A stretch of DNA of 64,000 nt. Source: Escherichia coli. GTDB taxonomy: Bacteria > Pseudomonadota > Gammaproteobacteria > Enterobacterales > Enterobacteriaceae. Shown piece by piece: positions 7,106 to 34,719 of the stretch (positions are counted from its first letter, which is position 1; the number at the start of each line of letters is the position of its first letter). Position numbers and translations under genes: made by a program. The notes below the pieces were generated by a model. The model saw only the letters and a list, made by a program, of their open reading frames with translations. It was not told where the DNA came from and did no database searches. The stretch lies in the NCBI RefSeq assembly GCF_024502345.1, contig NZ_JALDNN010000001.1, one strand, 5' to 3'.

Positions 7106-7117
7106 CTTTCTTCCCGA

Positions 7118-7204
7118 GCCCGGATGGTGGAATCGGTAGACACAAGGGATTTAAAATCCCTCGGCGTTCGCGCTGTGTGGGTTCAAGTCCCACTCCGGGT
7201 ACCA
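7118..7204 (+). tRNA. leuZ: tRNA-Leu (anticodon UAA), long variable arm; 3' half is the integration site of the element
   Basis: 87 nt ending CCA; anticodon loop gatttTAAaatcc; T-stem carries a compensatory U-A pair relative to the displaced copy at 34590-34645. Confidence 0.9.
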
Positions 7205-7276
7205 TGGGAAACATCAGAATAATCAAAGCAATAAGCAGTGTCGTTAAACCACCTCCGGGTGGTTTTTTTGTGCCTG
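7149..7276 (+). repeat. attL: direct repeat covering the 3' 56 nt of tRNA-Leu plus terminator
   Basis: About 128 bp, roughly 95% identical to 34590-34719. Confidence 0.85.
7246..7269 (+). terminator. Rho-independent terminator after leuZ
   Basis: Hairpin accacctccgggtggt followed by T7. Confidence 0.7.
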
Positions 7277-7445
7277 AAATTCATGTCCTGTGCATATCCT
7301 GTGCTCACGGGGTGCGATGAGCTGCAATCTCCAGCCTGGCAATGACGAATCGAACGTGTCGCCTCCAGCATAGAGAACCAGGCCGCTTTGCCTGTTTTCC
7401 GGTACGCTTCCGGGAAGGGGGGCCTGCTGAGCAAGCTGTAATGCT

Positions 7446-8186
7446 CTAGCCACCCTGAGTACAAAGTTGCTTAATTCGTGCAATCACCTCATCTCTGTAC
7501 TTCTGGTGTCCGCGCATAGCCCGTGGATGGGCAATTCTGAAACAGATTGCATTACCTGTTTTGAACTCCCATAGCTTCCCCGGAATGACTGAAGAAGTCT
7601 CATAGCCGCCCAGCTCAGTAAGCACCTGTTTTATGATGTAGTCTGTTCTCCGGGCTCCAGATGCAAAGATGATGAAATCAGGCTCAAGGTGTTTAATTTG
7701 TACCGCCAGCAGCTTCAGCGAGGCTAATATGACTTCCTGCACTTCATTTTGAGGGCGATTGAGAGGGGTCAGTCCGTCGTAATCCCACGCCAGTAGATTG
7801 GCATACACGATTGCCTGGGGAAGAATATTAAGCTCCCGGGCCAGCCTGAAATGATATTGCGTGAAGCGGCTACGTGATTTGAGGTTGGTGGTGCCATCAT
7901 TTTGTACCGGAAGATGATTCCTGTAACGATCTACAGCTTCTTCAACCACCTGCCCGATGGTGACGTCAGGTATAAGTCCCAACACCCGTGATATCGTATT
8001 CTTACCATTCAGCGTATTCCAGCCTGCGGTTTCACGTCCAACCAGCATGATTTTTATCGGTGAATGCCAGTATTCTTCAAACGGCACGGGTAAAAAGACG
8101 CCTGAGTATTTATCTTCATTCAGGTTAAATGACTGGGCGTCAACTTCCTGTAATATCCGTTTGTACGCGTCTAATAGCTTTTCCAT
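7446..8186 (-). CDS. Uracil-DNA glycosylase superfamily protein (UDG-like)
   Basis: 246 aa; KIMLVGRETAG resembles the family-4 UDG motif-A region and FRIAHPRAM resembles motif B (HPS-like). Confidence 0.5.
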   Translation of the reverse strand: MEKLLDAYKRILQEVDAQSFNLNEDKYSGVFLPVPFEEYWHSPIKIMLVGRETAGWNTLNGKNTISRVLGLIPDVTIGQVVEEAVDRYRNHLPVQNDGTTNLKSRSRFTQYHFRLARELNILPQAIVYANLLAWDYDGLTPLNRPQNEVQEVILASLKLLAVQIKHLEPDFIIFASGARRTDYIIKQVLTELGGYETSSVIPGKLWEFKTGNAICFRIAHPRAMRGHQKYRDEVIARIKQLCTQGG

Positions 8187-8266
8187 TCTTCAATCCTGCC
8201 CCGTAATAAAAACACCTTCAGATATATATTATCTCCATGATATCAATCAGATACATGAGGATAAAT

Positions 8267-9484
8267 ATGCAAAAATCCTTCCGATTCACCAATTCATCCA
8301 TCAAAGCCCTTCCGGCAAACACAGATACCCGATCTACAGAGCTTGAGGTATCAGATACCGAGGTCATAGGCCTCAAATGTCTCTCAGGTCGAACGGGTAA
8401 CAAACGTTTCCTCCTGCGCTACACATTCCACGGTACCAAAAAAAGTATCAGTATTGGCAGATTCCCTGAAATCGATGTGGGGACAGCCCGTCAGATAGCT
8501 CGCCGTCATAAGGAGGCGATTGCACTTGGAAATGACCCCAAGGCAGAGCGCGATAATTATCGTGCGATGCCAACGCTTAGTGAGTTTTTTCACCTGACCT
8601 ATGTTCCGTTCATCAAGCGCCATAAAAAGTCCTGGGATAAGGATGTTCAGCGTTTCACGCAATACATTGAACCTCGTCTGGGGAAGATACGTTACTGCGA
8701 TCTCAGGGCCAGAGAGATACAACAGGTGCTGTTTGACATGCTGGAGGGGCGTATTCACGGGCAGCAATATGCGCCGTCTACCTGTAACAGAGCCCTTGCT
8801 ATTCTGAAAACGATGGGGCGTTATGCGTTGCGACAGGATGTGCTGGAAAAGAATGAAGCCGATAAGATCCCTTTACTGAAAGAGAATAATCAGCGGACGC
8901 GCTTTTTTGATGCTGATGAGATCAGGCGCATTCTTGACGCTGCTACCCAATATCCCAACAAAGCTGCCGGGGGATTGATAGCCATGTTGTTGTTAACCGG
9001 TACACGCAAATCAGAAATGCTTAATGTCAGGCATGAACATATCGACCGGGCCAATCGTACTCTGTTCATTCCTTATACAAAAAATGGTCGCAGTCGGACG
9101 GTATATCTAAGCGATGCAGCATTATCGATTATTGATGCTATCCCACGAGTTGGCAGTAATCCGTATCTGTTCGCCATTAAGGATAATGGAAAACCGATAT
9201 CGGAACCCCGATGGGCATATGAAAAAATACTGGCACAGTGCGGTATAGACAAGAATGAAGTCTGTTTTCACACCACACGTCATTCTGTTGCCTCTTTACT
9301 GGTTTCGAGTGGTCAATTCAGCCTGTATGACGTTAAAGCACAACTGGCGCATGCCAGTATTCAAAGTACGGAGCGCTACGCGAAATTGACACCAGAGCGT
9401 ATGCGTCAGACCGGGCAGGGCGTAACTGACCTTCTTTTGAACACCGTTACTGCCGGTAACAATGATGATTTTAGCACCCCTTGA
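8267..9484 (+). CDS. Tyrosine recombinase / integrase (P4-like); alternative upstream ATGs at 8237 and 8255
   Basis: Catalytic signature TGTRKSE (R), HTTRHSVAS (HxxR), ERYAKL (Y); RBS gagga before ATG 8267; adjacent to tRNA att site. Confidence 0.85.
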   Translation: MQKSFRFTNSSIKALPANTDTRSTELEVSDTEVIGLKCLSGRTGNKRFLLRYTFHGTKKSISIGRFPEIDVGTARQIARRHKEAIALGNDPKAERDNYRAMPTLSEFFHLTYVPFIKRHKKSWDKDVQRFTQYIEPRLGKIRYCDLRAREIQQVLFDMLEGRIHGQQYAPSTCNRALAILKTMGRYALRQDVLEKNEADKIPLLKENNQRTRFFDADEIRRILDAATQYPNKAAGGLIAMLLLTGTRKSEMLNVRHEHIDRANRTLFIPYTKNGRSRTVYLSDAALSIIDAIPRVGSNPYLFAIKDNGKPISEPRWAYEKILAQCGIDKNEVCFHTTRHSVASLLVSSGQFSLYDVKAQLAHASIQSTERYAKLTPERMRQTGQGVTDLLLNTVTAGNNDDFSTP

Positions 9485-9493
9485 ACGTGGAGT

Positions 9494-9751
9494 ATGAGTA
9501 TGCCGTTAAAATGTCCTAAGTGTGGTAGCCGAAATACAGTGACAGAAACTGCCGGAAAGATAGCAGAAGTGACTCGCGATGACCGGTTCCTGACATCGAC
9601 ATCCGGTTATATTAGCCCGGAGCAATTACCAGAATTGCTTAAAGAAATCATCAGGGCGATACAACGTCTCTTTAGATTCCTTGAACAGCGTGAAAGGAAT
9701 AATGCGCCAGTGCTGATCTGCAAGGATTGTGGATATTATGAAAGAATATAG
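9494..9751 (+). CDS. Small zinc-ribbon protein (CxxC...CxxC), function unknown
   Basis: 85 aa with CPKCGS ... CKDCGY; translationally coupled to the integrase gene. Confidence 0.5.
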   Translation: MSMPLKCPKCGSRNTVTETAGKIAEVTRDDRFLTSTSGYISPEQLPELLKEIIRAIQRLFRFLEQRERNNAPVLICKDCGYYERI

Positions 9752-9796
9752 ATGACCACTGAAGGCAATTCCAGATTCTTTAGCCTGTCTATGTAA

Positions 9797-9826
9797 CCCC
9801 GATACTTAAAACGTATCGGGTTTTTT
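9797..9826 (+). terminator. Rho-independent terminator
   Basis: Hairpin cccgatac...gtatcggg followed by T6. Confidence 0.6.
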
Positions 9827-9844
9827 GTTTATGAGGATTATTCA

Positions 9845-10216
9845 ATGAAATTTGTCTCGAACTGGCAAGACCTGCCGTCGCTCCTTCTTCCGGAGTCAGT
9901 AATGAGTCTGTTGAAAACAGAGCTGGTACTCCCATTTGAAGATGAATACTCTGCAATGAGTTTCTGGGATGAAGTCGGGGTGACATTAATATATGTCGAG
10001 CCCGATGATGTACCTGAAGATATTAAAGCGCAGGTATTAAATGTGATTCATCAGTTAATTGCAAATCCAGAATTTGTAGTCCGTCTGACAGATGACTATT
10101 ACCTGATGCTTTCTGTTACGGAAGATAACGGGAACGGTATTTATCTGTTATTTCACCCCGATTGCCCTCTGAAGGGTATTGATTTATTAATTTCTATGGC
10201 CGAATCACGCTATTAA
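9845..10216 (+). CDS. Hypothetical protein (element cargo)
   Basis: 123-aa ORF with RBS-like aggatta upstream; no recognisable motif. Confidence 0.45.
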   Translation: MKFVSNWQDLPSLLLPESVMSLLKTELVLPFEDEYSAMSFWDEVGVTLIYVEPDDVPEDIKAQVLNVIHQLIANPEFVVRLTDDYYLMLSVTEDNGNGIYLLFHPDCPLKGIDLLISMAESRY

Positions 10217-10241
10217 ACACAAGCAAAACCTGGAACGCAAA

Positions 10242-10775
10242 ATGAGTAAATCAAAATTAGTTAAAAATAATGTTGAGTCAGTTTCGAAGGAGATTAAAAA
10301 TGAGGCAGAGGTTATTCATGAAAATCTCAGTGCAGATGAACAAACATTATCTGATATAAAAGACTATCAGTTGCTCATTGAAACAGGCCAGGCAGAAAAA
10401 ATCAGTCCTAAGGCAAGTGGTATTCTGACATGGCAACTGGCGATATCAGAGGTGGACAATGAACTTTATCTTCGTCTGGTGGCAAATGGCTGTGGAGGGT
10501 TGTTCTCTAAGGACTGGATCTCACTTTCTAAGATTGCAACTGTTCTGGAAACACAACCTGCTACCGGCTTCTCATCCGGAGTATTCAGGCCGCTATTCAA
10601 AGGGGCAAGCGCCAACAATGCAGGTTTTCTGGCTGCTGTTTTACGCTCCCCGGATATATGTCTGCTGGAGGCACATCCAGAGAAGTTATTTACTCATGTA
10701 TTATACCCGGACTGGAGGGAGCGGTTGAATAAACTTAATACGATCAGTAGCCAGGGAAAGATTACAGAGGATTAA
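10242..10775 (+). CDS. Hypothetical protein (element cargo)
   Basis: 177-aa ORF, AT-rich codon usage. Confidence 0.45.
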   Translation: MSKSKLVKNNVESVSKEIKNEAEVIHENLSADEQTLSDIKDYQLLIETGQAEKISPKASGILTWQLAISEVDNELYLRLVANGCGGLFSKDWISLSKIATVLETQPATGFSSGVFRPLFKGASANNAGFLAAVLRSPDICLLEAHPEKLFTHVLYPDWRERLNKLNTISSQGKITED

Positions 10776-10847
10776 TTTATTTCCTGCACTGTTATACAAC
10801 CAGAAATCACCACACACCACTATTTACTTTCTAAAGGAAAATTTATT

Positions 10848-11282
10848 ATGCAAACCCAATATGCCTTAAAACAGGCAGGATTAACTCTGCCTGTTACTAA
10901 AGAATTTCAGCAGCATATTACTACTCTTCTGGCAAATCAGGTTTTACAAAAAATAACTGAGGCAGTGGTTATTAATTTCCGCGATCCGGACTACAGTGCA
11001 GAATCCGGGGGCTTTCATCCCGTTGAAATACGGTTTATCCGTAAGAATAATGAATGGTATTTTGATTATGTCACAGATTTTAGTTATATGGGGCGTGTCT
11101 ACCCTGAGCTGGAAAAAGAAATTGATTTTTGCTGGTCGGGGAATTATGTCTTCCATTATCTGATTGGGGATATTTCACTGGCAGCAGAGAGGAATGAACT
11201 CTGGTCTCTGTGGGAGCGTAATTTTATGGAGTATCTCTCTATGGGGATTTACCGGGTAACGGTAACTGTGGAAAGTTGTTGA
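10848..11282 (+). CDS. Hypothetical protein (element cargo)
   Basis: 144-aa ORF. Confidence 0.45.
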   Translation: MQTQYALKQAGLTLPVTKEFQQHITTLLANQVLQKITEAVVINFRDPDYSAESGGFHPVEIRFIRKNNEWYFDYVTDFSYMGRVYPELEKEIDFCWSGNYVFHYLIGDISLAAERNELWSLWERNFMEYLSMGIYRVTVTVESC

Positions 11283-11583
11283 CCCGTTATGAACAGGAAG
11301 AAAGCGGGCGGCTTTGTAATCTACAGCATGTGGTGTGCATCACAGCATGGAGATGATGTCTCTTTTTCCTGGCTGTTCGCATAAACAAGTGCAGACACGG
11401 GGGATCTCAGATCCCTCGTGATTTTTGCCCCCTATGGTGCATTCTTCTGTAGCAGGGTGATAACGGTTAATCCATTACCCCAACGACAGTATTACACCGG
11501 TAATAAATGTTCATGAATACAGTTAGTTATGTGGGTTTTGAGGTGGGCTATGTCATCGTTGACGATAACTGAAGGTTTTACAG

Positions 11584-11811
11584 ATGTATAAAACTCGCGG
11601 TGAAAGGATCGCAGAAAGGCTGTGCTGGATATTACTTCAACTGTATACCGGTAATACGGTATCGGTTAATGATATATGTCAGCGTTTCGCGGTCAGTCGC
11701 CGAACCGGACAGCGTGATTTGTTGAGAGTTGAAACTGTAACGGAAACTATTTCACCTGGAAGGGTAAGGCTGGCAAATTTGATAAGGGAACGAGTTAGAC
11801 GAAATTTTTAA
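11584..11811 (+). CDS. Small HTH protein resembling the N-terminus of YafY/WYL-type regulators
   Basis: 75 aa; ...NTVSVNDICQRFAVSRRTGQRDL... HTH, parallel to the N-terminus of the 12773-13675 product. Confidence 0.4.
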   Translation: MYKTRGERIAERLCWILLQLYTGNTVSVNDICQRFAVSRRTGQRDLLRVETVTETISPGRVRLANLIRERVRRNF

Positions 11812-11892
11812 TCGAATCCATATCAATTCTATAAAATATGAAACTTAACGGGAGTAAATATACACTCCCGTTATAATGCAACCTTTTTTTAA

Positions 11893-12711
11893 CTACTCAA
11901 ATGATATTAATTTAGGTGCGACAGTGTTTTTATGACATGTTAAATTCGCAAGATCAATAATATCATGAAACAATTTTATGTCGTCGTCAGTGAGCTCTAC
12001 GTCTGGATCAGCTAAATCGGCACAGGTAACATTTAACCAGTGTGTTAATGAATCAATCCTGTTTGAAGTAATATATTCAGTGTGACCAATATCCCACTTC
12101 CAGTTGATCACCCGAGCAGGTCTGAATCTCACCTCCCGAACCCCAATTGGCGTTACTGACTCTACGAGAGGGTATATCGTGTTAAGTACTTTATCATGTT
12201 CACTGTAGATATTTAAATGCCCCATTTTTGAACCGTAAGCCATTTTCATTATGTTCTCTGTATAACTTGTTATTGGGGTGGCTCCGGCCATAGAGATTGT
12301 TAAGAGAATATTATCATTTTTAATATAGGGTAATGTATTGTTTATTAATCGAGTCCCTAAAGAATGACCCATTATGATCACATTACGCTTTTCTTTAACG
12401 TATATCTCGTTTATTACGTGTGCTAATTTTTCTCTGTTATTAACTGCTGCTTTCGTTGCATTATACCAGGCCTGACGCGCTTTAAATGGAATGGAGATTG
12501 ATGACAATAAAGGAGATGTTCTCAGGGGGAAGAGAGTATATAACCCCCACTTGTTCGCTATGTCAGAACTTAATATGGATAGTAGATTTGCCGATTCCCA
12601 TTTATAGTATCTGACATCAAGGCCACACCCTGCTTTAATTCGGTTAAACCATGATATATCATTTTCGGTCAGAAACCCTGATACAACAAGAAGAACCGGG
12701 CATTTTTTCAT
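11893..12711 (-). CDS. Alpha/beta-hydrolase-fold protein (GxSxG nucleophile elbow)
   Basis: 272 aa; IIMGHSLGTR serine-hydrolase motif. Confidence 0.5.
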   Translation of the reverse strand: MKKCPVLLVVSGFLTENDISWFNRIKAGCGLDVRYYKWESANLLSILSSDIANKWGLYTLFPLRTSPLLSSISIPFKARQAWYNATKAAVNNREKLAHVINEIYVKEKRNVIIMGHSLGTRLINNTLPYIKNDNILLTISMAGATPITSYTENIMKMAYGSKMGHLNIYSEHDKVLNTIYPLVESVTPIGVREVRFRPARVINWKWDIGHTEYITSNRIDSLTHWLNVTCADLADPDVELTDDDIKLFHDIIDLANLTCHKNTVAPKLISFE

Positions 12712-12772
12712 GGTAACTCCATTTTTTAGCTTACAAAAATAGCACTCAATGAAAATTATATTATCCGTGTCA

Positions 12773-13675
12773 TTACGGGGCGTTACTTGGCTGGGTGTAA
12801 CGTTTCAGTGCGGATTGTATATCTTCAGCAAGTTGTTGACGGATTGAGGCCGGTTGTATTACTTCGACATCCGGTATCCAGTATTTCATTAAAGGCATTA
12901 TCTGATCTGTGTGTGTTACACGTGATATCACCAGTAAATCGCCAGACCGGGAAGTATGAATTATTTCCTGTCCTGGCAATAGATGACGGTGGGTAAACCA
13001 CGGAGCAACATGTGCGGAAACTGAAATAAGAACTTCGATAAGGTCTTCGCTATACCAGATACCATCTGTCTTTTCTATTTTTTCATTAATTTCGGGGATT
13101 ATCCTGAAAGAGATATTACTCATGCAAACGTCTTTGACAGATGAGATAACAAAGCTTTTTAATGTACTGTCATGGGCGGCAGCGAGATACCACAATCCGT
13201 TGTCATTAACCAGCCTGTATGGCTCAACAGCCCGAAACTCTTTATCTTTGTAATTAAAATTTACTTTCTTCTGTGACAGGATGGCATCGGATAATACATT
13301 CAGAATTGACATGAATGATCCGCAGTTTTCGTATGGACGTTGTTTTATCAGAAACGGGTTGTTTTTCGTGTTACCTAACAAAATACTCAGTAGTCTGTCA
13401 TCCCAGCGAGGGAACAGCCCTTCAATACCCAGGATGCGCGTGAAATGACGTAAATCAGCATTGCTGCGTTGACCGAGAACACCGTCAGACAGGCGATAGC
13501 GACCATTTTGTCGAATCAGATTAAGATAGGACAGGCGCTGAGTAAGATCACGACGGATAGTTTTTTCGCAAACGTTAAATTCCTCAGATAACTCCCGGAC
13601 GGCTAGTGACTCACCATTGTTCAGGCGAGTTAATATCAATCCGAGTCGATATCCAAGTTTATCGTGCTTACCCAT
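12773..13675 (-). CDS. HTH + WYL-domain-type transcriptional regulator (YafY-like)
   Basis: 300 aa; N-terminal DeoR-like HTH ([21 protein letters not shown]), central region consistent with a WYL domain. Confidence 0.5.
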
Positions 13676-13724
13676 TCGTTTATCCGGTTAATGCCAGCGA
13701 AGAGGATATTTTCAGCAAAGTAAC

Positions 13725-13835
13725 GGACAGGATGAGTCCACTTTTACTGTGACGGAGAAAAAAATTAACTCATTAATTATCAATATATTAAAACATTGCT
13801 GGAATCATCGAATAACATGTGGACTCATCCTGTCC
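13725..13835. promoter_or_regulatory. Perfect 17-bp inverted repeat pair (candidate operator) upstream of the WYL/HTH regulator gene
   Basis: ggacaggatgagtccac (13725-13741) and gtggactcatcctgtcc (13819-13835), 77-bp AT-rich spacer. Confidence 0.5.
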
Positions 13836-14054
13836 ATGTGTATTTTTACGTTCAGGGTGATAATTATTATCCTGACCTGTACATGACATGTTTTTGCTGC
13901 ATATTTGACCATGCACTTTTGCCATCAAGTCGGAGAGGCAGGGGGGAACGTAAGATCCGAAGGTTAGAGAGGTTATCAGCAATTACAATGATGATTAATA
14001 TTTTCATAATATCGGAGAACATCATATTAGTTGAAATAACATAAAGGTGGTTCT

Positions 14055-14381
14055 ATGTATTTACATATCAGAAAGTATCAACTCGTAAATGCGAGATGGC
14101 GTGATGTCATTGATCTGACAGATTATGAAGAAACAATCAGGCAGGTTGTCGGTACATTATTTGGAAATGATTTTATTGAGGTCAGCGTTGAAACAAATTG
14201 TTTTACTCTGACAGTAAACAGTACAAGCAGTAAAATACCACACGGCATACTGGTGAATATGGGGAAAAGGCTGGCGGCTAATCTCCAGAGTATCACCTGT
14301 CATGCCATGCGGATCTATCATGTAAATGGCCATCCTGACGCGCGGCAGTTATTTCACTGTTTTGATGCCGATTGCCTGTGA
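14055..14381 (+). CDS. Hypothetical protein (element cargo)
   Basis: 108-aa ORF with RBS aaaggtgg upstream. Confidence 0.4.
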   Translation: MYLHIRKYQLVNARWRDVIDLTDYEETIRQVVGTLFGNDFIEVSVETNCFTLTVNSTSSKIPHGILVNMGKRLAANLQSITCHAMRIYHVNGHPDARQLFHCFDADCL

Positions 14382-14385
14382 TTAA

Positions 14386-14415
14386 GCCCCCAACTTCTGT
14401 TAAAGGAGTTGGGGG
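14386..14415. terminator. Bidirectional hairpin between convergent genes
   Basis: cccccaact...agttggggg perfect stem. Confidence 0.5.
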
Positions 14416-14429
14416 AGATTTAACGGTTA

Positions 14430-17030: not shown

Positions 17031-17076
17031 AGTTAACTCCGAAAAAATGCCGGGAGCTGTGTCCCGGCATAAAGAA

Positions 17077-17715: not shown

Positions 17716-17905
17716 TTATATCACCTTTAAGTTTGTTTTGACGATGTGCATTTTCCCACTCAACAATATCATCAAGAGAGAATCGTATAGCCCGCCCAAT
17801 TCTGATGAAGGGCGGGAGTTTTCCTGGGTTGCGCGATATATCTGACGCAACCGTGGATGCGGAAAGATTAAATCTTTCTGCAAACTGCTTAATGGTTAAA
17901 TACAT
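17705..17905 (-). CDS. AlpA/Xis-family excisionase-like DNA-binding protein
   Basis: 66 aa; LTIKQFAERFNLSASTV ... winged-helix pattern typical of AlpA/Xis. Confidence 0.65.
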   Translation of the reverse strand: MYLTIKQFAERFNLSASTVASDISRNPGKLPPFIRIGRAIRFSLDDIVEWENAHRQNKLKGDINGY

Positions 17906-18055
17906 AAACCTCCGGTTTTAGAGAAGAAGAAACCACGCGGATTTAATATCAATCCACATTCTTTGATGACTTAATGCAGGGCCCTGCAGAAGCATGCAAT
18001 GACAATACCGTCCTTAAACGAGTGTTGCATCAATCACGAATCACAGATCATAGGT

Positions 18056-25946: not shown

Positions 25947-25995
25947 TGAATCTTCATGTGACCAGTAGCGAGTAGCGCCAGAAAGAAAAGGATTA

Positions 25996-28900
25996 ATGAT
26001 GAACCAGACGTACACGCCAAAATTCCAGGAAGAATACAGCGCCAAAATTCCGGCACTGACGTTACTGACCAGCCTCGGCTGGACGTTTTTATCTCCGAAA
26101 CAGATTATGGATTACCGGGGCTATAAACAGGATGAGGTGGTGCTGCGTCCGGTTCTGCGTGAAGAGCTGTCGAAGCGTTCCTTTATGGCGGGTGGCAAAA
26201 CCTGCCAGTTATCGGAAAAAGCACTGGATAACCTGATATCACAGGTCTGTTCTCCGGCGCTGAATGAAGGGCTGCTCAAAGCCAATGAACGGATGTATAA
26301 CCATCTGCTCTACGGTATCGCCGTCACGGAGTTTGTCGATGGCAAGAAGGTCAACCCCACCATTGCGCTGATCGACTGGGAACATCCGGAAAATAACCAG
26401 TTCCACTTTACTGAAGAATTTACGGTATTGCGGTCAGGTGGTGTTGAAACCCGGAGGCCAGATATTGTCTGCTTTGTTAATGGTATCCCGCTGGCTGTTA
26501 TTGAAGCGAAAAGCCCGGCTGGTCATGGCAAGAAAGGGCCAACCATTGACGAGGGGATATCCCAGAGTATCCGCAACCAGTTCAACGATGAAATCCCGCA
26601 GCTGTTTGTCTACAGCCAGTTATTACTTTCGATTAACGGTCATGACGGGCGCTACGGTACATGCCATACGCCAATGAAATTCTGGGCGGCATGGCGCGAA
26701 GAAGATATTACCGATGCGCAGATGTATGCTCTGCGCAACCATCCTTTATCGACTGAACAAATTCATGCGTTGTTTGATCATCGTCCATCAGCCGATCTCA
26801 ACTGGTACCAACAGTTAATCGCCGCCGGTGAACTGGCTGTCAGTGGACAGGACAAACTGCTCATCAGCCTGCTTTCGCCGGAACGTCTGCTGGAGATGAC
26901 CCGCTTCTTCACTCTGTTTGATAAAAAGACCGGGAAAATTGTCGCCCGCTATCAGCAGGTGTTCGGTATTAAAAGACTGCTGGAGCGCATCAGTACCCGC
27001 AGACCCGATGGGGGCAGGGAAGGTGGTGTTATCTGGCATACCACCGGCTCTGGCAAATCGTACACCATGGTGTTCCTCAGCAAGGCGCTGATTCTTCATG
27101 ACAGCCTGAAGCGGTGTCGTATCGTGGTGGTGACGGACCGTATCGATCTTGAAGAACAGCTCAGCAGTACCTTTGCATCCGGCGGCGAGTTGGCCGGGAA
27201 AAAAGACAAAGCCAATGCAATGGCGACATCCGGGCAGATGCTGGCGAAACAGATTGGCTCCGGTAAAGAACGCATCATTTTCACCCTAATCCAGAAATTT
27301 AATTCAGCGACAAAACTTCCTGAATGCGTCAATACCAGCCCCGATATCATCGTTCTGGTTGATGAAGGACACCGTAGCCAGGGTGGTGAGAACCATGTGC
27401 GAATGAAACTGGCACTGCCGAACGCCGCCTTTGTGGCATTTACTGGTACGCCATTGCTAAAAGAAGATAAGACCACCAATAAATTCGGACCGATTGTCCA
27501 CGCTTATACCATGCAGCGAGCGGTAGAAGATAAAGCCGTTACACCTTTGCTGTATGAAGAACGTATTCCCGACCTTGAGGTTAACGATCGGGCAATAGAT
27601 GCCTGGTTTGATCGTATTACCGATGGGTTAAGCGAAGCGCAAAAAGCCGACCTGAAGCGTAAATATGCCCGTAAAGGTGAGGTTTATAGTGCAGATGATC
27701 GCATCCGTCTGATCGCACTCGATATCGCCACGCACTTCTCGAAGAATATTGATGAGGGACTGAAAGGCCAGCTTGCCTGCGACAGCAAGATTTCCGCCAT
27801 CAAATATAAAAAGTATCTTGATGAAGCCGGGTTGTTTGAGTCAGCTGTAGTTATCAGCCCGCCGGATACCCGGGAAGGGAATACCGAAGTGGATGAAAGC
27901 AAACTGCCGGAAGTGACGAAATGGTGGAAGGATAATGTCGGCACGCAGGATGAGTCTGTGTATACCCGTAATGTCATCAGTCGTTTCGATACCGATGAGA
28001 AGCTCAAATTGCTGATAGTCGTTGATAAACTGCTCACCGGGTTTGATGAGCCGAAGAATACCGTGCTGTATATCGACAAGCCGCTTAAGTCCCACAACCT
28101 TATCCAGGCGATTGCGCGGGTGAACCGACTGCATCCACTAAAAAAGTTCGGTCTGCTGATTGATTATCGCGGTATTCTGGCTGAGCTGGACACGACTATC
28201 GGCAAATATCAGGACCTCGCCTCCCGAACTCAGGGCGGATACGATATCAAAGATATTGACGGGCTGTACAGCGCCATGAGCTCTGAATACAAGCGCCTGC
28301 CGCATCTGTATAACCAGCTGTGGGCCATATTTGCCGGTGTTAAAAACAAAAATGATACTGAGCAGTTACGTGCGGTACTGGTGCCTAAAATGGAAGAACG
28401 TGACGGAGAGATGGTCGATATCCATCAGAAAACCCGTGATGATTTCTTCGAGGCGTTAACGGCCTTTGCCGGATGCCTGAAAGTGGCACTGCAGTCCGCT
28501 ACCTTCTTCACCGACAAGAGCTTTACGGAACAAGACCGAAATCTCTATAAAGAAACCGTAAAACAGATGTCCAGCCTGCGCCAGTGGGCGATGCAGGTAA
28601 GTGGAGAGCAGGTCAATTATGACGACTACGCTGAGCAGGTGAAAAAACTGCTGGATAAGCATGTCACCGGCGTTGAAGTTCGTGAACCGGATGGCGTGTA
28701 TGAAGTCGGTAAAATGGGCAAGAGCGAAAAGCCCGAAGAGTGGGACAACAATAAAACCCGCAATGAAACCGACATCATTAAAACCCGTGTGACAAAGATG
28801 ATTGAGCAGGAATTGCGTGATGACCCGTATGCTCAGGAGGCATTTTCAAAACTCCTGCGTATGGCTATCGAAGAGGCTGAAAAACTGTTTGACCATCCGC

Positions 28901-29283
28901 TGAAACAGTACCTTTTGTTCCGTGAATTTGAAGAACAGGTTGAAGCCCGTAAGCTCAGCGATATCCCGGATGCACTGGCGGTAAACAAGCATGCTCAGGC
29001 GTATTACGGTGTATTTAAAAAAGAGCTACCTGAGGTTTTTGCGGTAAACGACGTTCAGGTGCAGGATAAGTGGACGAAGCTGGCTTTTGAAGTGGACAAC
29101 ATTATCGTCAAAGCGGTGGCAGAAAACTCCCTGAACCCCCAGGACATTGAGAAAGTCGTTAAGACAAGTCTGCTACCACTGCTGTTTACGGCCTGCCGGG
29201 AAATTGGTGCCGGAATGAATCAGGTTAACCGTATTGTTGAAACCATCATCCAGATACTGCGCGTTGGTTTGATGAAATCATGA
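25996..29283 (+). CDS. hsdR: Type I restriction enzyme R subunit (nuclease/helicase)
   Basis: 1095 aa; helicase motif I TTGSGKS, motif II DEGHRSQ, N-terminal nuclease region. Confidence 0.9.
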   Translation: MMNQTYTPKFQEEYSAKIPALTLLTSLGWTFLSPKQIMDYRGYKQDEVVLRPVLREELSKRSFMAGGKTCQLSEKALDNLISQVCSPALNEGLLKANERMYNHLLYGIAVTEFVDGKKVNPTIALIDWEHPENNQFHFTEEFTVLRSGGVETRRPDIVCFVNGIPLAVIEAKSPAGHGKKGPTIDEGISQSIRNQFNDEIPQLFVYSQLLLSINGHDGRYGTCHTPMKFWAAWREEDITDAQMYALRNHPLSTEQIHALFDHRPSADLNWYQQLIAAGELAVSGQDKLLISLLSPERLLEMTRFFTLFDKKTGKIVARYQQVFGIKRLLERISTRRPDGGREGGVIWHTTGSGKSYTMVFLSKALILHDSLKRCRIVVVTDRIDLEEQLSSTFASGGELAGKKDKANAMATSGQMLAKQIGSGKERIIFTLIQKFNSATKLPECVNTSPDIIVLVDEGHRSQGGENHVRMKLALPNAAFVAFTGTPLLKEDKTTNKFGPIVHAYTMQRAVEDKAVTPLLYEERIPDLEVNDRAIDAWFDRITDGLSEAQKADLKRKYARKGEVYSADDRIRLIALDIATHFSKNIDEGLKGQLACDSKISAIKYKKYLDEAGLFESAVVISPPDTREGNTEVDESKLPEVTKWWKDNVGTQDESVYTRNVISRFDTDEKLKLLIVVDKLLTGFDEPKNTVLYIDKPLKSHNLIQAIARVNRLHPLKKFGLLIDYRGILAELDTTIGKYQDLASRTQGGYDIKDIDGLYSAMSSEYKRLPHLYNQLWAIFAGVKNKNDTEQLRAVLVPKMEERDGEMVDIHQKTRDDFFEALTAFAGCLKVALQSATFFTDKSFTEQDRNLYKETVKQMSSLRQWAMQVSGEQVNYDDYAEQVKKLLDKHVTGVEVREPDGVYEVGKMGKSEKPEEWDNNKTRNETDIIKTRVTKMIEQELRDDPYAQEAFSKLLRMAIEEAEKLFDHPLKQYLLFREFEEQVEARKLSDIPDALAVNKHAQAYYGVFKKELPEVFAVNDVQVQDKWTKLAFEVDNIIVKAVAENSLNPQDIEKVVKTSLLPLLFTACREIGAGMNQVNRIVETIIQILRVGLMKS

Positions 29284-30035
29284 GTGAAAAAGAATCGCCA
29301 TCAATGAAAGCGTTACGCATTGTCTATGGTGATGAGGTCATCGTCGTACAGTGTGTTCCGCGTCAGGTCGTAAAGGGCAGGGTGCTCATTAAGGTTTATC
29401 CGGACTGCCGGGTTGTGGCCTCTGTACCGCCTGAAACACCGGAGCACGAGGTATTGTCTGCGCTGAAAAAACGTGGGCGCTGGATATACCAGCAACTGCG
29501 TGATTTCAGGGAGCAACAGATACACATTGTTCCGCGTCAGTATGTCAGCGGAGAAAGCCATTATTATCTCGGTAAGCAATATCAGTTGAAAGTGACAGAA
29601 GACGCTACTGTGCCGCAACGAGTGAAAATGTTGCGTGGACGTCTGGAAGTGACTGTCAGACACAAATCGGCAGAAAAGATTAAAGCCTTGCTGGCTGAAT
29701 GGTATCGGGAACGTGCCAGAGATGTTTTTCAGCGCAGGCTTGATTTACTGATTCCGCAGACCCTTTGGGTCAGTGAGCGTCCTCCGATACGTCTGCGGGC
29801 GATGCAAACGCAATGGGGCAACTGTTCAGCAAAAGGCTGTCTGACCCTGAATCCATGGCTGGTTAAGGCATCTTCAGAATGTATCGATTATGTTTTGCTA
29901 CATGAGTTATGCCATGTGGCTGAGCACAACCACAGCGAGGAGTTTTACCGTCTGATGGGACAGGTTATGCCGGGCTGGGAAAAGGTTAAGAAGCGACTGG
30001 ATGGTATGGCTGGGATGTTGTTGGCAGATATGTAA
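29280..30035 (+). CDS. DUF45/YgjP-like predicted zinc metallohydrolase (M48/WLM-like)
   Basis: 251 aa; HELCHVAEHNHSEEF metal-binding signature; start overlaps hsdR stop. Confidence 0.7.
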   Translation: MSEKESPSMKALRIVYGDEVIVVQCVPRQVVKGRVLIKVYPDCRVVASVPPETPEHEVLSALKKRGRWIYQQLRDFREQQIHIVPRQYVSGESHYYLGKQYQLKVTEDATVPQRVKMLRGRLEVTVRHKSAEKIKALLAEWYRERARDVFQRRLDLLIPQTLWVSERPPIRLRAMQTQWGNCSAKGCLTLNPWLVKASSECIDYVLLHELCHVAEHNHSEEFYRLMGQVMPGWEKVKKRLDGMAGMLLADM

Positions 30036-30093
30036 CTTATCAATATGAGTTCTTAAGAGTTTGGTCAGTCTCGTTAATGCAGGGAGTATAATA

Positions 30094-31932
30094 ATGAGTA
30101 AGTTAGATAATAAAATTGAAGCACGCCATCGTAATTTGTTTGATGTTCTAAATGCGCAAAAATATACCGTTGATTACTTTCAGCGCGAGTATAGCTGGGG
30201 TGAGAAACATATTGAAGAGTTGGTTACAGACTTAACATCTGCGTTTCTCAATGAATACACAGTCGGTGATTCTCGGGAGCAGGGTGAAAACTACAATAAT
30301 TATTACTTAGGACCATTTGTTGTGAGTAGTAAAGATGGAAAGCGGAGTATTATTGATGGTCAGCAACGACTGACTTCATTAACTTTATTTCTAATTTACC
30401 TCCATAATCTTCAGAAAGAACTTAAATATGAAGAGAAAATAGAATCAATGATTTTCTCCGAGCTACGTGGCAGCAAATCATTCAATATAGTAGTTGAAGA
30501 CAGAATTCCTTGCATGGAAGCATTGTTTAATTTTGGTAGCTATAGTTTAGTTGATGGGGATGATGAGTCAACCCATAACATGGTGGAGAGATATCAGAAT
30601 ATCACAGATGCTTTTCCTGATGAGTTAAAAGGTCAGGCTTTTCCTTTTTTTATCGACTGGCTTAAGTATAACGTTATTATGGTTGAGATAGTCGCCTATT
30701 CAGATGAAAACGCATATACCATCTTTGAGACTATGAATGACCGAGGATTGAATCTTACTCCGTCCGAAATGCTTAAAGGTTTTTTACTTTCACGTTTTCA
30801 TCAGGGAGATAAACGCCAAAAGGCAAATGAACTCTGGAAAAAAGCGATGATGGATTTAAAAAGCTATGACAAAGATGAAGACCAACGTTTTTTCCAGTCA
30901 TGGTTGCGTGCTCAATATGCTGATACAATACGCCCGGGTAAAGCTGGTTCAAAAAATGAAGACTTTGAAAAAATAGGTACGCGTTTTCATAGCTGGGTTA
31001 GAGATAATCTTCAGGCGGTGGGATTGGACCCAGATAATGGTGAGACATTCGAACGATTTATACAAAAAAACTTTTTGTTTTATTTGAATGCCTATACACA
31101 AATACTGAATGCTGAGAGAGTATTAACGCACCAACTGGAATATGTATTTTATATCCACCATTGGGGTATTGCACCTACTTTAAGTTTTCCTTTGATGTTG
31201 GCTCCATTAAATGTAGGTGACAGTCCTGAGGCTGTGATAGCCAAAATAAACCTAGTGGCTCGCTATATTGAAACGTTTGTTGTTCGTCGTTCTGTTAATT
31301 TCCGAAAATTCTCTGCCAGTTCTATTCGTTACACAATGTACAGTCTTGTTAAAGAGATTCGTGGTAAAAGTTTTGAAGAATTAAAAGATTTATTATCTAA
31401 GAAGTTATCCGAAATGCCAGATACTTTTGCAGGAATGGAAGAGTTTCGTCTCCATGGTCAAAACTATCGTTTTGTGAAGTTTTTGCTTTCTCGTATAACT
31501 GCGTGGGTTGAGCAACAAGCCGGAATGAGTACAACCTTCATTACATATTATCAGCCAGAACACGGTAAGCCATTTGAAGTCGAGCATATTTGGGCCGATA
31601 AATATGAACGTTACTCTGATGAGTTTGAACAAGAGCACGAATTTAACAATTACAGAAATCGCTTAGGTGATTTGGTTTTATTACCTAGAGGCTCAAACCA
31701 GTCATATGGTGATTTGTGTTACGATCAAAAGCAACCTCATTACATCAAAGAGAATCTCCTGGCTAAATCGTTATGCCCATTGGCATATATGAATAACCCT
31801 AATTTCAATCAGTTGAGAAATGTATTCGGATTGCCTTTCAAACCACATGATTCATTTAAAAAACAAGATGTCGATGAACGACAGTCTTTGTATAAAATAA
31901 TTTGTGAGAATATTTGGGGCCATAATTTATAG
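30094..31932 (+). CDS. DUF262 + DUF1524 protein (GmrSD-family-like, predicted type IV restriction endonuclease)
   Basis: N-terminal IIDGQQRLTSL (DUF262 DGQQR motif), C-terminal FEVEHIWA His-Me finger-like (DUF1524); RBS ggag before ATG 30094. Confidence 0.7.
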   Translation: MSKLDNKIEARHRNLFDVLNAQKYTVDYFQREYSWGEKHIEELVTDLTSAFLNEYTVGDSREQGENYNNYYLGPFVVSSKDGKRSIIDGQQRLTSLTLFLIYLHNLQKELKYEEKIESMIFSELRGSKSFNIVVEDRIPCMEALFNFGSYSLVDGDDESTHNMVERYQNITDAFPDELKGQAFPFFIDWLKYNVIMVEIVAYSDENAYTIFETMNDRGLNLTPSEMLKGFLLSRFHQGDKRQKANELWKKAMMDLKSYDKDEDQRFFQSWLRAQYADTIRPGKAGSKNEDFEKIGTRFHSWVRDNLQAVGLDPDNGETFERFIQKNFLFYLNAYTQILNAERVLTHQLEYVFYIHHWGIAPTLSFPLMLAPLNVGDSPEAVIAKINLVARYIETFVVRRSVNFRKFSASSIRYTMYSLVKEIRGKSFEELKDLLSKKLSEMPDTFAGMEEFRLHGQNYRFVKFLLSRITAWVEQQAGMSTTFITYYQPEHGKPFEVEHIWADKYERYSDEFEQEHEFNNYRNRLGDLVLLPRGSNQSYGDLCYDQKQPHYIKENLLAKSLCPLAYMNNPNFNQLRNVFGLPFKPHDSFKKQDVDERQSLYKIICENIWGHNL

Positions 31933-31990
31933 CAAAGTTGGGGTGTTAATTAATGTGTAATGGCATCATGATTTTTAAAAGGAGGTTGAA

Positions 31991-33118
31991 TTGCGTTCTG
32001 AAACGTTTTTTGTCAAATTTATTGAACAACTGAAAGGTATTTCGGTTGAGGATGATGTTGAATTCAATTTTTTTGAATTGGGTGGTTCCGGATATCTCGA
32101 AAATCCAACTACGGATTTGATGGCTTTGTTTATGGGAGCCCAGAAAATGGTGCCGCCATGGTTGCTCAAAGCATTGCTATGTTGCCTAGATGATTCCCTC
32201 GATGTTGATGAAATTGATTTCACTTCTCTGGAGCTAATGAGAGAGGCCCGAACAGAAGATGGGAAATATATTGATATTCTTATCAGACATGATGAATTCA
32301 TTATAGGTATTGAGCATAAAGTTCTGGCTGATACATATAATCCTTTTCCCAGCTATGTAAGTCTCATTGATAGTTACGGCGGCAACAATCAAAAACTATT
32401 TCGCTGTATATTAAAGCCTGACGGTAACAGCGCTAAAGGCGTAGACGGTTGGCAACTGATCAATTATTCACTGCTGCTGGAAACCGCCATTCGACGTCTG
32501 GGGTTAGAGATGATGAATCAAGAGTTCAGCAAGTGGACTTTTTTTTATCAGGAGTTTTTAAGTCATCTTAAAAAATTGAGTGAGGTTAGTATGGATAAGG
32601 TATCTGATAAAAATGTGGAGTTTGTCACTGAAAATTTCACAGCTTTGATAAAATCGGTTCAATTGCTGGAAATGTACCAAAATGCTATCACCGAGGAAGC
32701 TAAATCGGTTGTCTCAGAGGTATTGCCTGATATTCATATTGCAACAGGTATTAATAACTGGAAGGGTTACTATAAAGCAATTCATCTGATGCCGGGATGC
32801 TGGGGGCAAGGTAAAACAGGAATTACGTTAGTTTATCGCCCTTCAGAGGATGGTCGAGATGAAGCTGAGTTCTATGTATATGGATGGATACATTCAGATG
32901 ATTACCCTGAAGTTAATGCACTAAAAGAAGAAATAAGAGTTGCTTTAAGTGCTGGAGATTTCATTCCAACAGCTAGCCCTGAGGACTATGAAGTATCAAT
33001 TACTGGGAAGGGGAAAGTGCTTGAACTGAGTTTTTGGGGGAATACGAGAAGCAAAAAAGATGCACTGGTTCTTCTTAAGGATATGACTAAGTGGATGGAC
33101 TCAAAAATAAGAACATAA
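31991..33118 (+). CDS. Hypothetical protein with candidate PD-(D/E)xK nuclease motif; TTG start uncertain
   Basis: 375 aa; DILIRHDEFIIGIEHK fits D...ExK; RBS aaaggagg upstream. Confidence 0.4.
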   Translation: MRSETFFVKFIEQLKGISVEDDVEFNFFELGGSGYLENPTTDLMALFMGAQKMVPPWLLKALLCCLDDSLDVDEIDFTSLELMREARTEDGKYIDILIRHDEFIIGIEHKVLADTYNPFPSYVSLIDSYGGNNQKLFRCILKPDGNSAKGVDGWQLINYSLLLETAIRRLGLEMMNQEFSKWTFFYQEFLSHLKKLSEVSMDKVSDKNVEFVTENFTALIKSVQLLEMYQNAITEEAKSVVSEVLPDIHIATGINNWKGYYKAIHLMPGCWGQGKTGITLVYRPSEDGRDEAEFYVYGWIHSDDYPEVNALKEEIRVALSAGDFIPTASPEDYEVSITGKGKVLELSFWGNTRSKKDALVLLKDMTKWMDSKIRT

Positions 33119-33222
33119 AGTAATATGACTGAGTGATGACGATCTTTTTTAAATTGTGGATTATTAGGCTGGTAATTGAAGCGCCGAATAGACAGATATT
33201 AGAATAAAAGGAGAATATTCAA

Positions 33223-34404
33223 ATGATTTATCAGTGTGATACTTGCAGTAGAACGACTTTTGAGGTTAATTGTCCCTGGTGTAGTGGAGTTTCGCCTGTA
33301 AAAACGTCTGCATGGGGTTCAGCATCATCGACCTCACAAGCAATAGATATACAACGTATGACACCATTGAATCCATCGTTTTATCCAGAGTTTCAGTATC
33401 GTTCAAAGGGTGTTCTAAAAGATCTATTTGGGAAAAAGAAAGAGCAAACTCAGCTTAATCAATTGCTTGAAAATGTTCTCGAAAAATACTCCAGTTTAAA
33501 AGATCCATATTTTACTAACTTCATTTACACTTCCAGATTCTCACATAATAATAAATCGGAAGCAGATTACTCAACAGATAATGGTACATACTCCGAATTA
33601 CAACTTTTCCGTGAGGTGTTGGTCAGAAAAGGGTTCAATGAGCTTGAAGAGTTACCTGAGCTATTAGATAAATTACTCCTTACCACGTCATTTAACGCTC
33701 TTTATTATGGTTTCGCTAAGGAAGTTAAACGGCATATTAAATCTACACTTACTGAATCCTTGAAGTCATGGATTGAGGAAGCGGGTACCACTTTTAGGGC
33801 AGATCTTTCATTGTTTCTATTCTATATATGGAGCAATAAAATAGAGTTCTCATCAGTAGAGTTCAATGAAAAAGCGGAGGCTACGCCTGGTGTTCCTTTA
33901 GTTTCATTTGATGAAGTTAAAAAATACTTAGCTGTGTGCGAACATATTTATTTTGATATTCTGGTTGATAGATTAGCTACACGGCTCGAACATTTTAACC
34001 CTAACAAATTCGTCACCATGTATTTAGTTGATGCAATGGACGGTTTCCAGTTTGAAGATTTCCTTGTGGAAGTATTCCAGACTATGGGCTATGACGTCAA
34101 AGAAACCAAGAGAACGCAAGATCAGGGGGCAGATCTCTTCGTCACTCGATTTGGTAAGGATATGGTTATTCAGGCGAAAAATTATTCTGGTTCTGTAGGT
34201 AACTCGGCGGTGCAGCAGGTGATCTCTGCTAAAACATTCTATGGTTGTGATGAGGCGATGGTTGTGACTAATTCCTACTTCACTCGCTCTGCGAAAGAGT
34301 TAGCTGAATCAGCCTTGGTACGTCTGATCGACAGGGATGAACTGCAAAAGTATCTGGATGATTACAATCAGAAGATAATTGAAGATTTCCAGTCAAACTC
34401 GTAA
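33223..34404 (+). CDS. Protein with N-terminal zinc ribbon and C-terminal Mrr-type restriction endonuclease catalytic domain
   Basis: 393 aa; CDTCS...CPWCS; C-terminal FEDFLVEVFQTMGY...GADLFV...IQAKNY...VQQVISA matches the Mrr_cat pattern. Confidence 0.6.
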   Translation: MIYQCDTCSRTTFEVNCPWCSGVSPVKTSAWGSASSTSQAIDIQRMTPLNPSFYPEFQYRSKGVLKDLFGKKKEQTQLNQLLENVLEKYSSLKDPYFTNFIYTSRFSHNNKSEADYSTDNGTYSELQLFREVLVRKGFNELEELPELLDKLLLTTSFNALYYGFAKEVKRHIKSTLTESLKSWIEEAGTTFRADLSLFLFYIWSNKIEFSSVEFNEKAEATPGVPLVSFDEVKKYLAVCEHIYFDILVDRLATRLEHFNPNKFVTMYLVDAMDGFQFEDFLVEVFQTMGYDVKETKRTQDQGADLFVTRFGKDMVIQAKNYSGSVGNSAVQQVISAKTFYGCDEAMVVTNSYFTRSAKELAESALVRLIDRDELQKYLDDYNQKIIEDFQSNS

Positions 34405-34589
34405 CTTTGCAGTCATATAGATATAGCAAAGGACAGGTAGGCCTCCGTGAGAGGGGGACTTACCTGTGCAGATTCTGTGCTCAAAGTTATCCAAGTCTAT
34501 CTATTTACTGCCAATTACAGTAAAATGAGTAAACAATTACAGCAAAGTTTCGCAATGCACTGCTATGTAACTCATTGATCCTGCGTAGA

Positions 34590-34719
34590 ATTTAAAATCC
34601 CTCGGCGTTCGCGCTGTGCGGGTTCAAGTCCCGCTCCGGGTACCATGGGAAAGATAAGAATAAAATCAAAGCAATAAGCAGTGTCGTGAAACCACCTTCG
34701 GGTGGTTTTTTTGTGCCTG
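34590..34719 (+). repeat. attR: displaced 3' half of tRNA-Leu plus terminator (direct repeat of 7149-7276)
   Basis: Contains tRNA 3' 56 nt ending CCA at 34645, with no 5' half upstream; terminator hairpin at 34691-34712. Confidence 0.85.

Follow-up and report, generated by a model that had tools for sequence, protein, structure and literature searches.

A 27.4-kb element in the tRNA-Leu gene leuZ of Escherichia coli with the att repeats, polymerase and gene order of a pipolin

We analysed a 64,000-nt stretch of Escherichia coli DNA (contig NZ_JALDNN010000001.1 of assembly GCF_024502345.1; hereafter, the window), in which the tRNA-Leu(UAA) gene leuZ and yecA are separated by about 27.4 kb. The interval from 7149 to 34722 is almost certainly an integrated pipolin, an element encoding the primer-independent family-B DNA polymerase piPolB, and belongs to the common E. 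coli leuZ type. The element type, the site, and the layout have already been described in three papers (Redrejo-Rodriguez 2017, PMC5695915; Flament-Simon 2020, PMC7385651; Mateo-Caceres and Redrejo-Rodriguez 2024, PMC11551731), and biologically the element adds little, being another instance of the layout most common among E. coli pipolins. For annotation, the interval should be treated as a pipolin with a defence island, and not as a prophage or a series of "hypothetical" genes. Its further value is as a clean natural case of which att copy is borne by the element, with the probable crossover placed within 29 nt, as another instance in which cargo and hsdS are reshuffled while the core stays constant, and as an example of a conserved hairpin before piPolB, which may be a control element of pipolin replication. 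The features are listed in Table 1.

A preliminary description of this DNA had taken leuZ and yecA to be neighbours driven apart by an insertion. The empty site was reconstructed by joining 6401–7148 to 34590–35400 (1559 nt) and was queried in 5426 complete E. coli genomes, to which all genome counts below refer. It was recovered as one contiguous piece in 3780 of them, at identities of up to 99.6%, whereas the element (queried as 7149–32000) was covered to at least 80% in 188. In genomes without the insertion, pgsA, tRNA-Gly, tRNA-Cys, tRNA-Leu, and yecA are annotated adjacent to one another, and the 24 kb to the right of the element was found in 5349 genomes. These results indicate that the interval is an insertion and not DNA carried by essentially all E. 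coli. The piPolB gene was present in 295 genomes (5.4%), always on the chromosome and never on a plasmid, in agreement with the patchy distribution known from the literature and noted in the preliminary description. About 30% of the genomes lack a contiguous empty site, which suggests that leuZ is a busy integration hotspot, and other leuZ insertions are flanked by the same repeats, so that the repeats are indeed shared with other insertions in this tRNA-Leu gene.

The borders of the element are formed by a single long direct repeat. leuZ, which is preceded by tRNA-Gly (6902–6977) and then tRNA-Cys (7032–7105; ARAGORN, with Rfam in agreement), is intact, and the repeat search returned two abutting pairs, 7149–7222/34590–34663 and 7221–7279/34664–34722 (95% identity each). 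In the global alignment, the two pairs merged into a single repeat, 131 nt long on the left and 133 nt on the right, whose copies differ by six substitutions and a 2-nt indel. The repeat starts at position 32 of the tRNA, where the 5' strand of the anticodon stem ends, and spans the last 56 nt of the tRNA and the terminator hairpin. The borders as first described, an intact tRNA-Leu on one side and a 95% identical copy of its 3' 56 nt and terminator on the other, were thus correct, except that the right end had been placed at 34719, whereas the true end is 34722. The distance is 27,441 bp from repeat start to repeat start and 27,574 bp between the outer ends of the two repeats. The left end of the element reads TGCCTGAAATTCATGTCCTGTGC from 7270, and the right end, just inside the distal repeat, reads ACTCATTGATCCTGCGTAGA (34570–34589).

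The two repeat copies could be assigned to their origins. The distal copy agrees with the unoccupied site of strain PapM-32-1 at all 133 bases. The tRNA-side copy shares only 93.8% identity with this site, but 99.2% with its counterpart on the tRNA side of the strain C1 pipolin. All six substitutions and the indel lie 3' of 7177 and sort completely by side, the left copy being element-type and the right copy native. The element therefore carries its own leuZ 3' half and terminator, and the 3' 56 nt of the intact leuZ are element-derived sequence. Compared with the native gene, the T-stem of this leuZ has two mutually compensatory changes (C->T / G->A), and ARAGORN and Rfam both still call the tRNA. 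At the level of sequence comparison, these results show that the element supplies leuZ with a new 3' half, so that the gene stays intact, and that the native 3' half ends up 27.4 kb downstream. Because every difference between the copies is 3' of 7177 and segregates by side, the crossover would have occurred within the 29 identical bases at 7149–7177 (34590–34618 in the distal copy). This 29-nt segment occurs twice in the window, and none of 100 shuffled sequences contained any match to it. A third, internal att copy, as expected from tandem accretion, was sought and was not found at up to three mismatches. In a separate strain, E. coli 23AR0303, the same leuZ site (6718–11798 of locus L004) holds a 4-kb remnant that lacks piPolB and consists of a UDG-like gene, a truncated arm-type integrase gene, an AAA ATPase gene, and an HNH endonuclease gene, followed by yecA.

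The hallmark gene of the element encodes an 866-aa polymerase. The protein has D59/E61 (D-x-E), D368, K504xxxNSxYG, S571VTTDG, and K613H-X8-K623TRG, in the numbering of the reference enzyme. That enzyme, from E. coli 3-373-03_S1_C2, has been characterised biochemically, with the same-numbered residues mutated or highlighted, and the motifs SxTTDG (an altered PolC motif) and KH-X8-KTRG (in place of KxY) separate piPolBs from other family-B polymerases (PMC5695915). The ExoI D-x-E, SxTTDG, and KH-X8-KTRG, by which membership is judged, are all found in the 866-aa protein. The sequence profiles, in contrast, are nearly blind to it: the Pfam DNA_pol_B_2 match is weak (E 0.015), PHROG DNA polymerase matches were found, and no match was obtained in NCBIfam, the PDB sequences, or PADLOC. 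The identification therefore rests on motif positions and orthology. Three complete genomes, including strain C1, match the full 2601-nt gene at a listed identity of 100.0%. The start was placed at the ATG at 17030, which has a Shine-Dalgarno sequence, GGAG, upstream at the proper distance. A longer open reading frame (ORF) of 887 aa, starting at 17093, was dropped in favour of this ATG, on the basis of the GGAG, the reference numbering, and agreement with RefSeq; the longer ORF also crosses a hairpin. Primer-independent synthesis by this piPolB, and self-replication of the element, would be expected from the in vitro work on the orthologous enzyme (PMC5695915).

In addition to the polymerase, the gene content and gene order correspond to those of published pipolins. 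The 23 genes counted in the element cover 89% of its interior and form two modules, a core (7.3–22.2 kb) and a cargo (22.5–34.4 kb). In the gammaproteobacterial layout, an IntSXT-type integrase gene lies near the integration site, amid DUF2787, a WYL protein, and orphans, DUF2787 being listed as a core marker; near piPolB, an IntP2-type integrase gene is followed by an excisionase gene; and the cargo module is rich in defence genes (PMC11551731). E. coli pipolins are reported to occupy a Leu-tRNA gene, flanked by att-like direct repeats, and many carry a UDG-like gene and restriction-modification (RM) systems (PMC7385651). The element in the window has terminal repeats enclosing piPolB, integration at a Leu-tRNA gene, a second recombinase gene and an excisionase gene near piPolB, and both DUF2787 and WYL genes, with no structural or conjugation genes in the NCBIfam and PHROG scans. 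With the leuZ pipolins of 3-373-03_S1_C2 and H10407 (PMC5695915, PMC7385651, PMC11551731), it shares the site, the att repeats, the piPolB residue numbering, the core order (UDG-like, integrase, DUF2787, WYL, piPolB, excisionase, second integrase), and a cargo of type I RM, GmrSD, PD-(D/E)XK, and Mrr genes. The polymerase, two tyrosine recombinases, excisionase-like helix-turn-helix (HTH) protein, UDG-like gene, and defence genes reported in the preliminary description were all confirmed, and the core order matches that published for gammaproteobacterial pipolins (PMC11551731).

The first integrase, about 1 kb from the tRNA, is NCBIfam XerC/XerD-like, matches the integrase family phrog_1, and, outside its last ~8 residues, is near-identical to the orthologues in H10407 and C1. 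The second integrase is 27% identical to the first, and both are full-length, aligning over the entire catalytic domains. The second integrase gene and the HTH_17 gene have the same orientation as piPolB, and their order is the same in the diverged pipolins L005, L007, and L008; the complete minus-strand block of the core is orphan376, second integrase, HTH_17 excisionase, orf212, and piPolB.

The GC content is 43.3% in the element and 49.6–50.2% in its flanks, and the AT-rich blocks that had been pointed out are real, with 36.2% GC at 19.2–22.4 kb and 37.6% at 30.1–34.4 kb. No phage structural or lysis family was matched in NCBIfam or in PHROGs (hsdM, hsdS, the yecA-like gene, hsdR, and the GmrSD gene were left out of the PHROG run), and no relaxase or type IV secretion system family of NCBIfam was matched by the element proteins, as had been stated for phage structural and conjugation genes. 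The PHROG matches are confined to integration and excision, DNA metabolism, and unknown function. Rfam returned nothing inside the element besides the tRNA.

The closest published relative is the pipolin of enterotoxigenic E. coli (ETEC) H10407, which has been named as a pipolin host in which a myovirus prophage shares the site (PMC7385651). The H10407 locus is 97.0% identical to the window over 7150–24038 and 98.7% over 24487–34468, with the same annotated genes, and these values, together with the piPolB motifs, bear out the identification as a pipolin. H10407 has an adjoining P2-like prophage and an MZA system, whereas the element in the window has neither. Compared with known pipolins, the element differs in details only, namely, a divergent stretch at 9400–9800 with an 85-aa CxxC ORF, and the combination of target recognition domains (TRDs) in hsdS. 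The core of strain C1 is 99.6–100% identical over 11.8–20.8 kb. The cargo of C1 is different: its hsd operon encloses a cold-shock-domain gene, and it has other DUF262 genes and Hhe. The alignments show a mosaic element, with a core ~100% like that of C1, a cargo 98.7% like that of H10407, and a new TRD combination in hsdS. A constant core with exchangeable cargo is a pattern already published.

The region directly upstream of piPolB was compared with that of diverged pipolins. The 212-aa orphan orf212 has no significant match in Pfam, NCBIfam, PADLOC, or PHROGs, and an exhaustive search of 1.84 billion representative proteins gave 18 relatives, with no annotated domain among them. Relatives at 50%, 35%, and 30% identity each have an HTH_17 gene on one side, with the integrase gene further upstream, and on the other side a following gene. 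The latter is a full-length piPolB in L005 and L007; in L006 and L008, it is a gene of no assigned identity, truncated where the contig ends. The block of orphan376, integrase, excisionase, orf212, and piPolB is kept in diverged metagenomic pipolins in which orf212 is 30–35% identical; in L007, identity to the window is 42% for the orphan376 homologue before the integrase and 70% for piPolB.

In the window, the hairpin (RNA fold z = -2.85) lies in the 46 nt that separate orf212 from piPolB. Three diverged pipolins have a GC-rich hairpin of 7–9 bp in the same gap, with other sequence and without a clean U-run (L007 8619–8639, L005 8650–8670, and L008 2367–2386). Since there is no space for a promoter between the hairpin and the piPolB start, the hairpin may attenuate piPolB expression. 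A scan for sigma-70-like promoters over 13.6–22.6 kb was uninformative, with 15 sites compared to 23.2 in shuffled sequences. One doubtful but conceivable scheme is that the hairpin is a regulatory gate, where piPolB transcription would depend entirely on read-through from the integrase-excisionase-orf212 operon, passage being controlled by the lineage-restricted orf212 protein or the WYL regulator; replication would therefore be coupled to the excision programme. If true, this gate would be the first proposed control point of pipolin replication. The comparison comprises four sequences, the window and three pipolins, with orf212 30–50% identical, and is a lead rather than a finding.

The sequence shows that site-specific recombination placed a 27.4-kb block in the 3' half of tRNA-Leu(UAA). 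By analogy with the orthologues in the literature, the life cycle of the element would be as follows. The tRNA-adjacent integrase would perform both integration and excision, and the second integrase and the excisionase would assist or modulate excision. The excised circle would be copied by piPolB, which would start chains without a primer, and the cargo would protect the host from phages and would be swapped between elements by recombination.

Several points weigh against reading the interval as a pipolin of this kind. Excision, circularisation, and replication of this copy are suggested by literature on orthologues only. In the 2020 survey, pipolins were found only as single-copy chromosomal DNA, with excision negligible or undetectable under standard growth (PMC7385651). 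The terminator-like hairpin before piPolB suggests that the polymerase may normally be poorly expressed. Furthermore, the labels IntSXT and IntP2 are borrowed from the literature and are putative here, and either of the two integrases could act at the leuZ att site.

One alternative explanation is a fixed, immobile genomic or defence island, a remnant of an integrative element that would now serve solely as a chromosomal defence locus, with piPolB a passenger or decaying. The undetected excision in sequenced pipolin strains (PMC7385651) and the hairpin before piPolB are both consistent with this explanation, as are decayed relatives at the same site, such as the 23AR0303 remnant with its UDG-like gene, truncated integrase, and two other genes. 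However, all core ORFs and both integrases in the window are full length, piPolB has every catalytic residue, and both att copies are intact. The element is present in just 3.5–5.4% of genomes, with mosaic cores and cargos, a distribution typical of mobile elements, and pipolin and host phylogenies were incongruent in the 2020 study (PMC7385651). We therefore consider a fixed island unlikely.

Somewhat less probable still is that piPolB serves as a DNA-damage-tolerance or anti-phage effector rather than as a replicase, through its translesion and untemplated-start synthesis, the element being an ordinary integrase-driven island with a hallmark gene that itself benefits the host. The reference enzyme does perform translesion synthesis (PMC5695915), piPolB is flanked by a WYL regulator, a type described as sensing nucleic acids during defence and damage responses (PMC11551731), and a UDG-fold protein is encoded elsewhere in the core of what is, as a whole, a defence island. 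Conversely, piPolB stays in close linkage with the integrase-excisionase block in pipolins whose orf212 is only 30–35% identical, and this linkage is consistent with a function in the life cycle of the element itself. In other taxa, piPolB is also encoded on plasmids (PMC5695915, PMC11551731). An effector would also be at odds with the PADLOC result, in which no model matched piPolB.

P4-like satellites carry an arm-type integrase and defence cargo, and, like tRNA defence islands, they resemble the element in having this integrase by a tRNA gene with a duplicated 3' end, variable defence cargo, and a core-plus-cargo organisation. In H10407, a P2-like prophage with its own integrase adjoins the pipolin at the same repeat, and such co-integration occurs in several strains (PMC7385651). 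A helper-dependent satellite, mobilised in a P4-like manner by P2-like prophages sharing the att site, is nevertheless very improbable, since no prophage adjoins the element in the window, the second integrase shares only 25% identity with that of the prophage next to the H10407 pipolin, no PHROG family of capsid-size-redirecting, packaging, psu/delta-type, or P4 alpha-type primase proteins was matched, and the P2/P4 cos core had no match in the window at up to three mismatches (a weak negative). In contrast to P4-like satellites, the hallmark gene of the element is piPolB.

The pipolin can also be placed among other elements with polymerases of this family. Casposons and polintons are likewise integrated and encode their own family-B DNA polymerase (PMC7385651). 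Pipolins differ from both in their use of tyrosine recombinases and tRNA att sites instead of Cas1 or retroviral-type integrases, and in having no capsid genes; the pipolin polymerase needs neither a protein primer nor a nucleic-acid primer.

Table 1. Features of the element and its borders (window positions), in order of coordinate.
Feature	Position	Strand	Basis or remark
tRNA-Leu(UAA), leuZ, anticodon taa	7118–7204	+	ARAGORN; Rfam tRNA 57.6 bits; intact
tRNA-side att repeat, element-type variants	7149–7279	+	attL in window orientation; attR in ExplorePipolin convention
Probable strand-exchange region, 29 nt identical in both repeats	7149–7177	+	Anticodon loop through variable arm to T-stem start
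UDG-superfamily-fold protein, 246 aa, non-canonical motifs	7446–8186	-	Predicted structure
Tyrosine recombinase with N-terminal arm-binding domain ("IntSXT"-type in literature)	8267–9484	+	Phage_integrase 1.4e-23; Arm-DNA-bind_3 7e-14
85-aa CxxC small protein	9494–9751	+	Within the sole strongly divergent core stretch
123-aa orphan, pipolin core	9845–10216	+	phrog_32947 (unknown function); same-size gene at same position in L007
177-aa orphan, pipolin core	10242–10775	+	phrog_28971 (unknown function); 169-aa gene at same position in L007
DUF2787 protein, pipolin core marker	10848–11282	+	Pfam 4.6e-40; RefSeq name in strain C1
75-aa small HTH protein	11584–11811	+	N-terminal HTH part of phrog_13105, the family of the WYL regulator
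DUF726 (alpha/beta-hydrolase-like) protein	11893–12711	-	Pfam DUF726 1.5e-6, LCAT 2.6e-5; RefSeq name
HTH-WYL-WCX transcriptional regulator, core marker	12773–13675	-	Pfam HTH_DeoR, WYL 2.5e-10, WCX; PADLOC WYL 7.5e-22
108-aa orphan, convergent with piPolB	14055–14381	+	Annotated in H10407 and C1; 108-aa gene at same position in L005
piPolB, primer-independent family-B DNA polymerase, 866 aa	14430–17030	-	Motif positions; orthology to published elements
9-bp GC-rich perfect hairpin with U6, terminator-/attenuator-like	17047–17070	-	Between orf212 stop and piPolB start
212-aa orphan (orf212), directly upstream of piPolB	17077–17715	-	Conserved position in diverged pipolins
HTH_17 excisionase-like protein, 66 aa	17705–17905	-	Pfam HTH_17 1e-8; phrog_66 "excisionase and transcriptional regulator" 4.3e-7
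Second tyrosine recombinase ("IntP2"-type in literature)	18056–19186	-	Pfam Phage_integrase, Phage_int_M; NCBIfam; PHROGs
376-aa orphan (orphan376), quasi-core, linked to IntP2	19330–20460	-	42% identity to gene upstream of IntP2 in L007
411-aa orphan, 34–36% GC block	20967–22202	-	Co-occurs with piPolB in E. coli
Type I RM methyltransferase HsdM	22506–24029	+	TIGR00497 283 bits, cut-off 242.75
Type I RM specificity subunit HsdS, reassorted TRD	24019–25266	+	NF007278 E 7e-18, below that equivalog's cut-off
YecA-family (UPF0149 + SEC-C) paralogue in hsd operon	25263–25946	+	NF007704 356.7 bits; Pfam UPF0149, SEC-C
Type I RM endonuclease HsdR	25996–29283	+	TIGR00348 461 bits, cut-off 284.55
YgjP-like / M48 metallopeptidase	29280–30035	+	Pfam YgjP-like 7.6e-58; RefSeq name; overlaps hsdR end
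GmrSD-family (DUF262/DUF1524) nuclease, candidate type IV restriction enzyme	30061–31932	+	GmrSD_N 4.6e-33, GmrSD_C 1.5e-7; PADLOC HEC-06 1.3e-39
PD-(D/E)XK nuclease family protein, candidate defence gene PDC-S26	31991–33118	+	PADLOC PDC-S26 2e-50; PDDEXK_4 4e-13
Mrr-type restriction endonuclease domain protein	33223–34404	+	Mrr_cat 9.8e-30; PADLOC ZorD nuclease domain / PDC-S02 / mREase_IV
Distal att repeat, displaced native leuZ 3' half and terminator	34590–34722	+	

The protein described earlier as like a uracil-DNA glycosylase (UDG) was examined by structure prediction. The 246-aa protein has no match in Pfam (even at E <= 10), NCBIfam, or the PDB sequences. Its AlphaFold2 model, made from an alignment with 32 homologues, has a predicted local distance difference test score of 90.1, and the top 50 Foldseek matches in the PDB all belong to the UDG superfamily (family 4, UdgX, SMUG1, and TDG; best E 1.1e-5; TM scores 0.47–0.57). 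Motif-like G-R-E-T-x-G and H-P-R segments are invariant across the 32 homologues. A 4Fe-4S cluster with four Cys ligands defines the family-4 UDGs. The 246-aa protein has two Cys in total and is therefore not a canonical Fe-S family-4 UDG. Thus, its predicted fold is like that of family-4 UDGs and UdgX, whereas a Pfam UDG match, a PDB sequence match, and the Fe-S cysteines are all lacking. The earlier assignment holds for the superfamily fold and not for the family profile or the four cysteines, and "UDG-like" is the right level of claim for this predicted structure.

For the type I RM system, HsdM, HsdS, and HsdR are encoded together, and the RefSeq names of the orthologues agree. The first TRD of hsdS (TRD1, ~24030–24490) was found in only five genomes, whereas TRD2 is the common pipolin type. 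No genome covers at least 80% of the reassorted hsdS, and the TRD1/TRD2 combination occurs in none of the 5426; this type I system therefore probably has a new specificity, as judged from the gene sequence. For the GmrSD-family protein, the DUF262 N-terminal domain and the DUF1524 C-terminal domain are both present, at the domain level.

The YecA paralogue of the hsd operon, located between hsdS and hsdR, has 57% protein identity to the chromosomal YecA (34841–35506). The chromosomal yecA is the first gene past the right end of the element, and the paralogue is also present in the H10407 and C1 pipolins.

Among the other core genes, the stretch at 9400–9800 has 60–77% identity to H10407 and C1 and alters the last ~8 residues of the integrase; in H10407, a 58-aa hypothetical gene is annotated there. 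The 75-aa HTH ORF at 11584–11811 is unannotated in the RefSeq records of H10407 and C1. A 78-aa HTH_DeoR gene next to DUF2787 in L007 is its positional counterpart, and the ORF is probably a missed gene.

The 376-aa orphan has no family match in Pfam, NCBIfam, PADLOC, or PHROGs, and the 411-aa orphan has no significant match in the same four collections, the best being AbiJ_NTD4 at E 0.03. The two were compared as possible paralogues of each other, which they are not. The block that they form (19330–22202, 34–36% GC) is present in 275 of the 5426 genomes, a set similar in size to that of piPolB.

Several of the core orphans within 7446–12711 match PHROG families of unknown function over nearly their whole length, the lowest E value being 1e-194. 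The phage protein database thus seems to have taken up pipolin genes, probably via prophage calls that extended into an adjoining pipolin, and PHROG-based annotation could therefore mislabel pipolins as phage. In the chromosomal flank, and unrelated to the element, the small RNA C0465 (Rfam 111.6 bits) lies at 52868–52945 on the minus strand.

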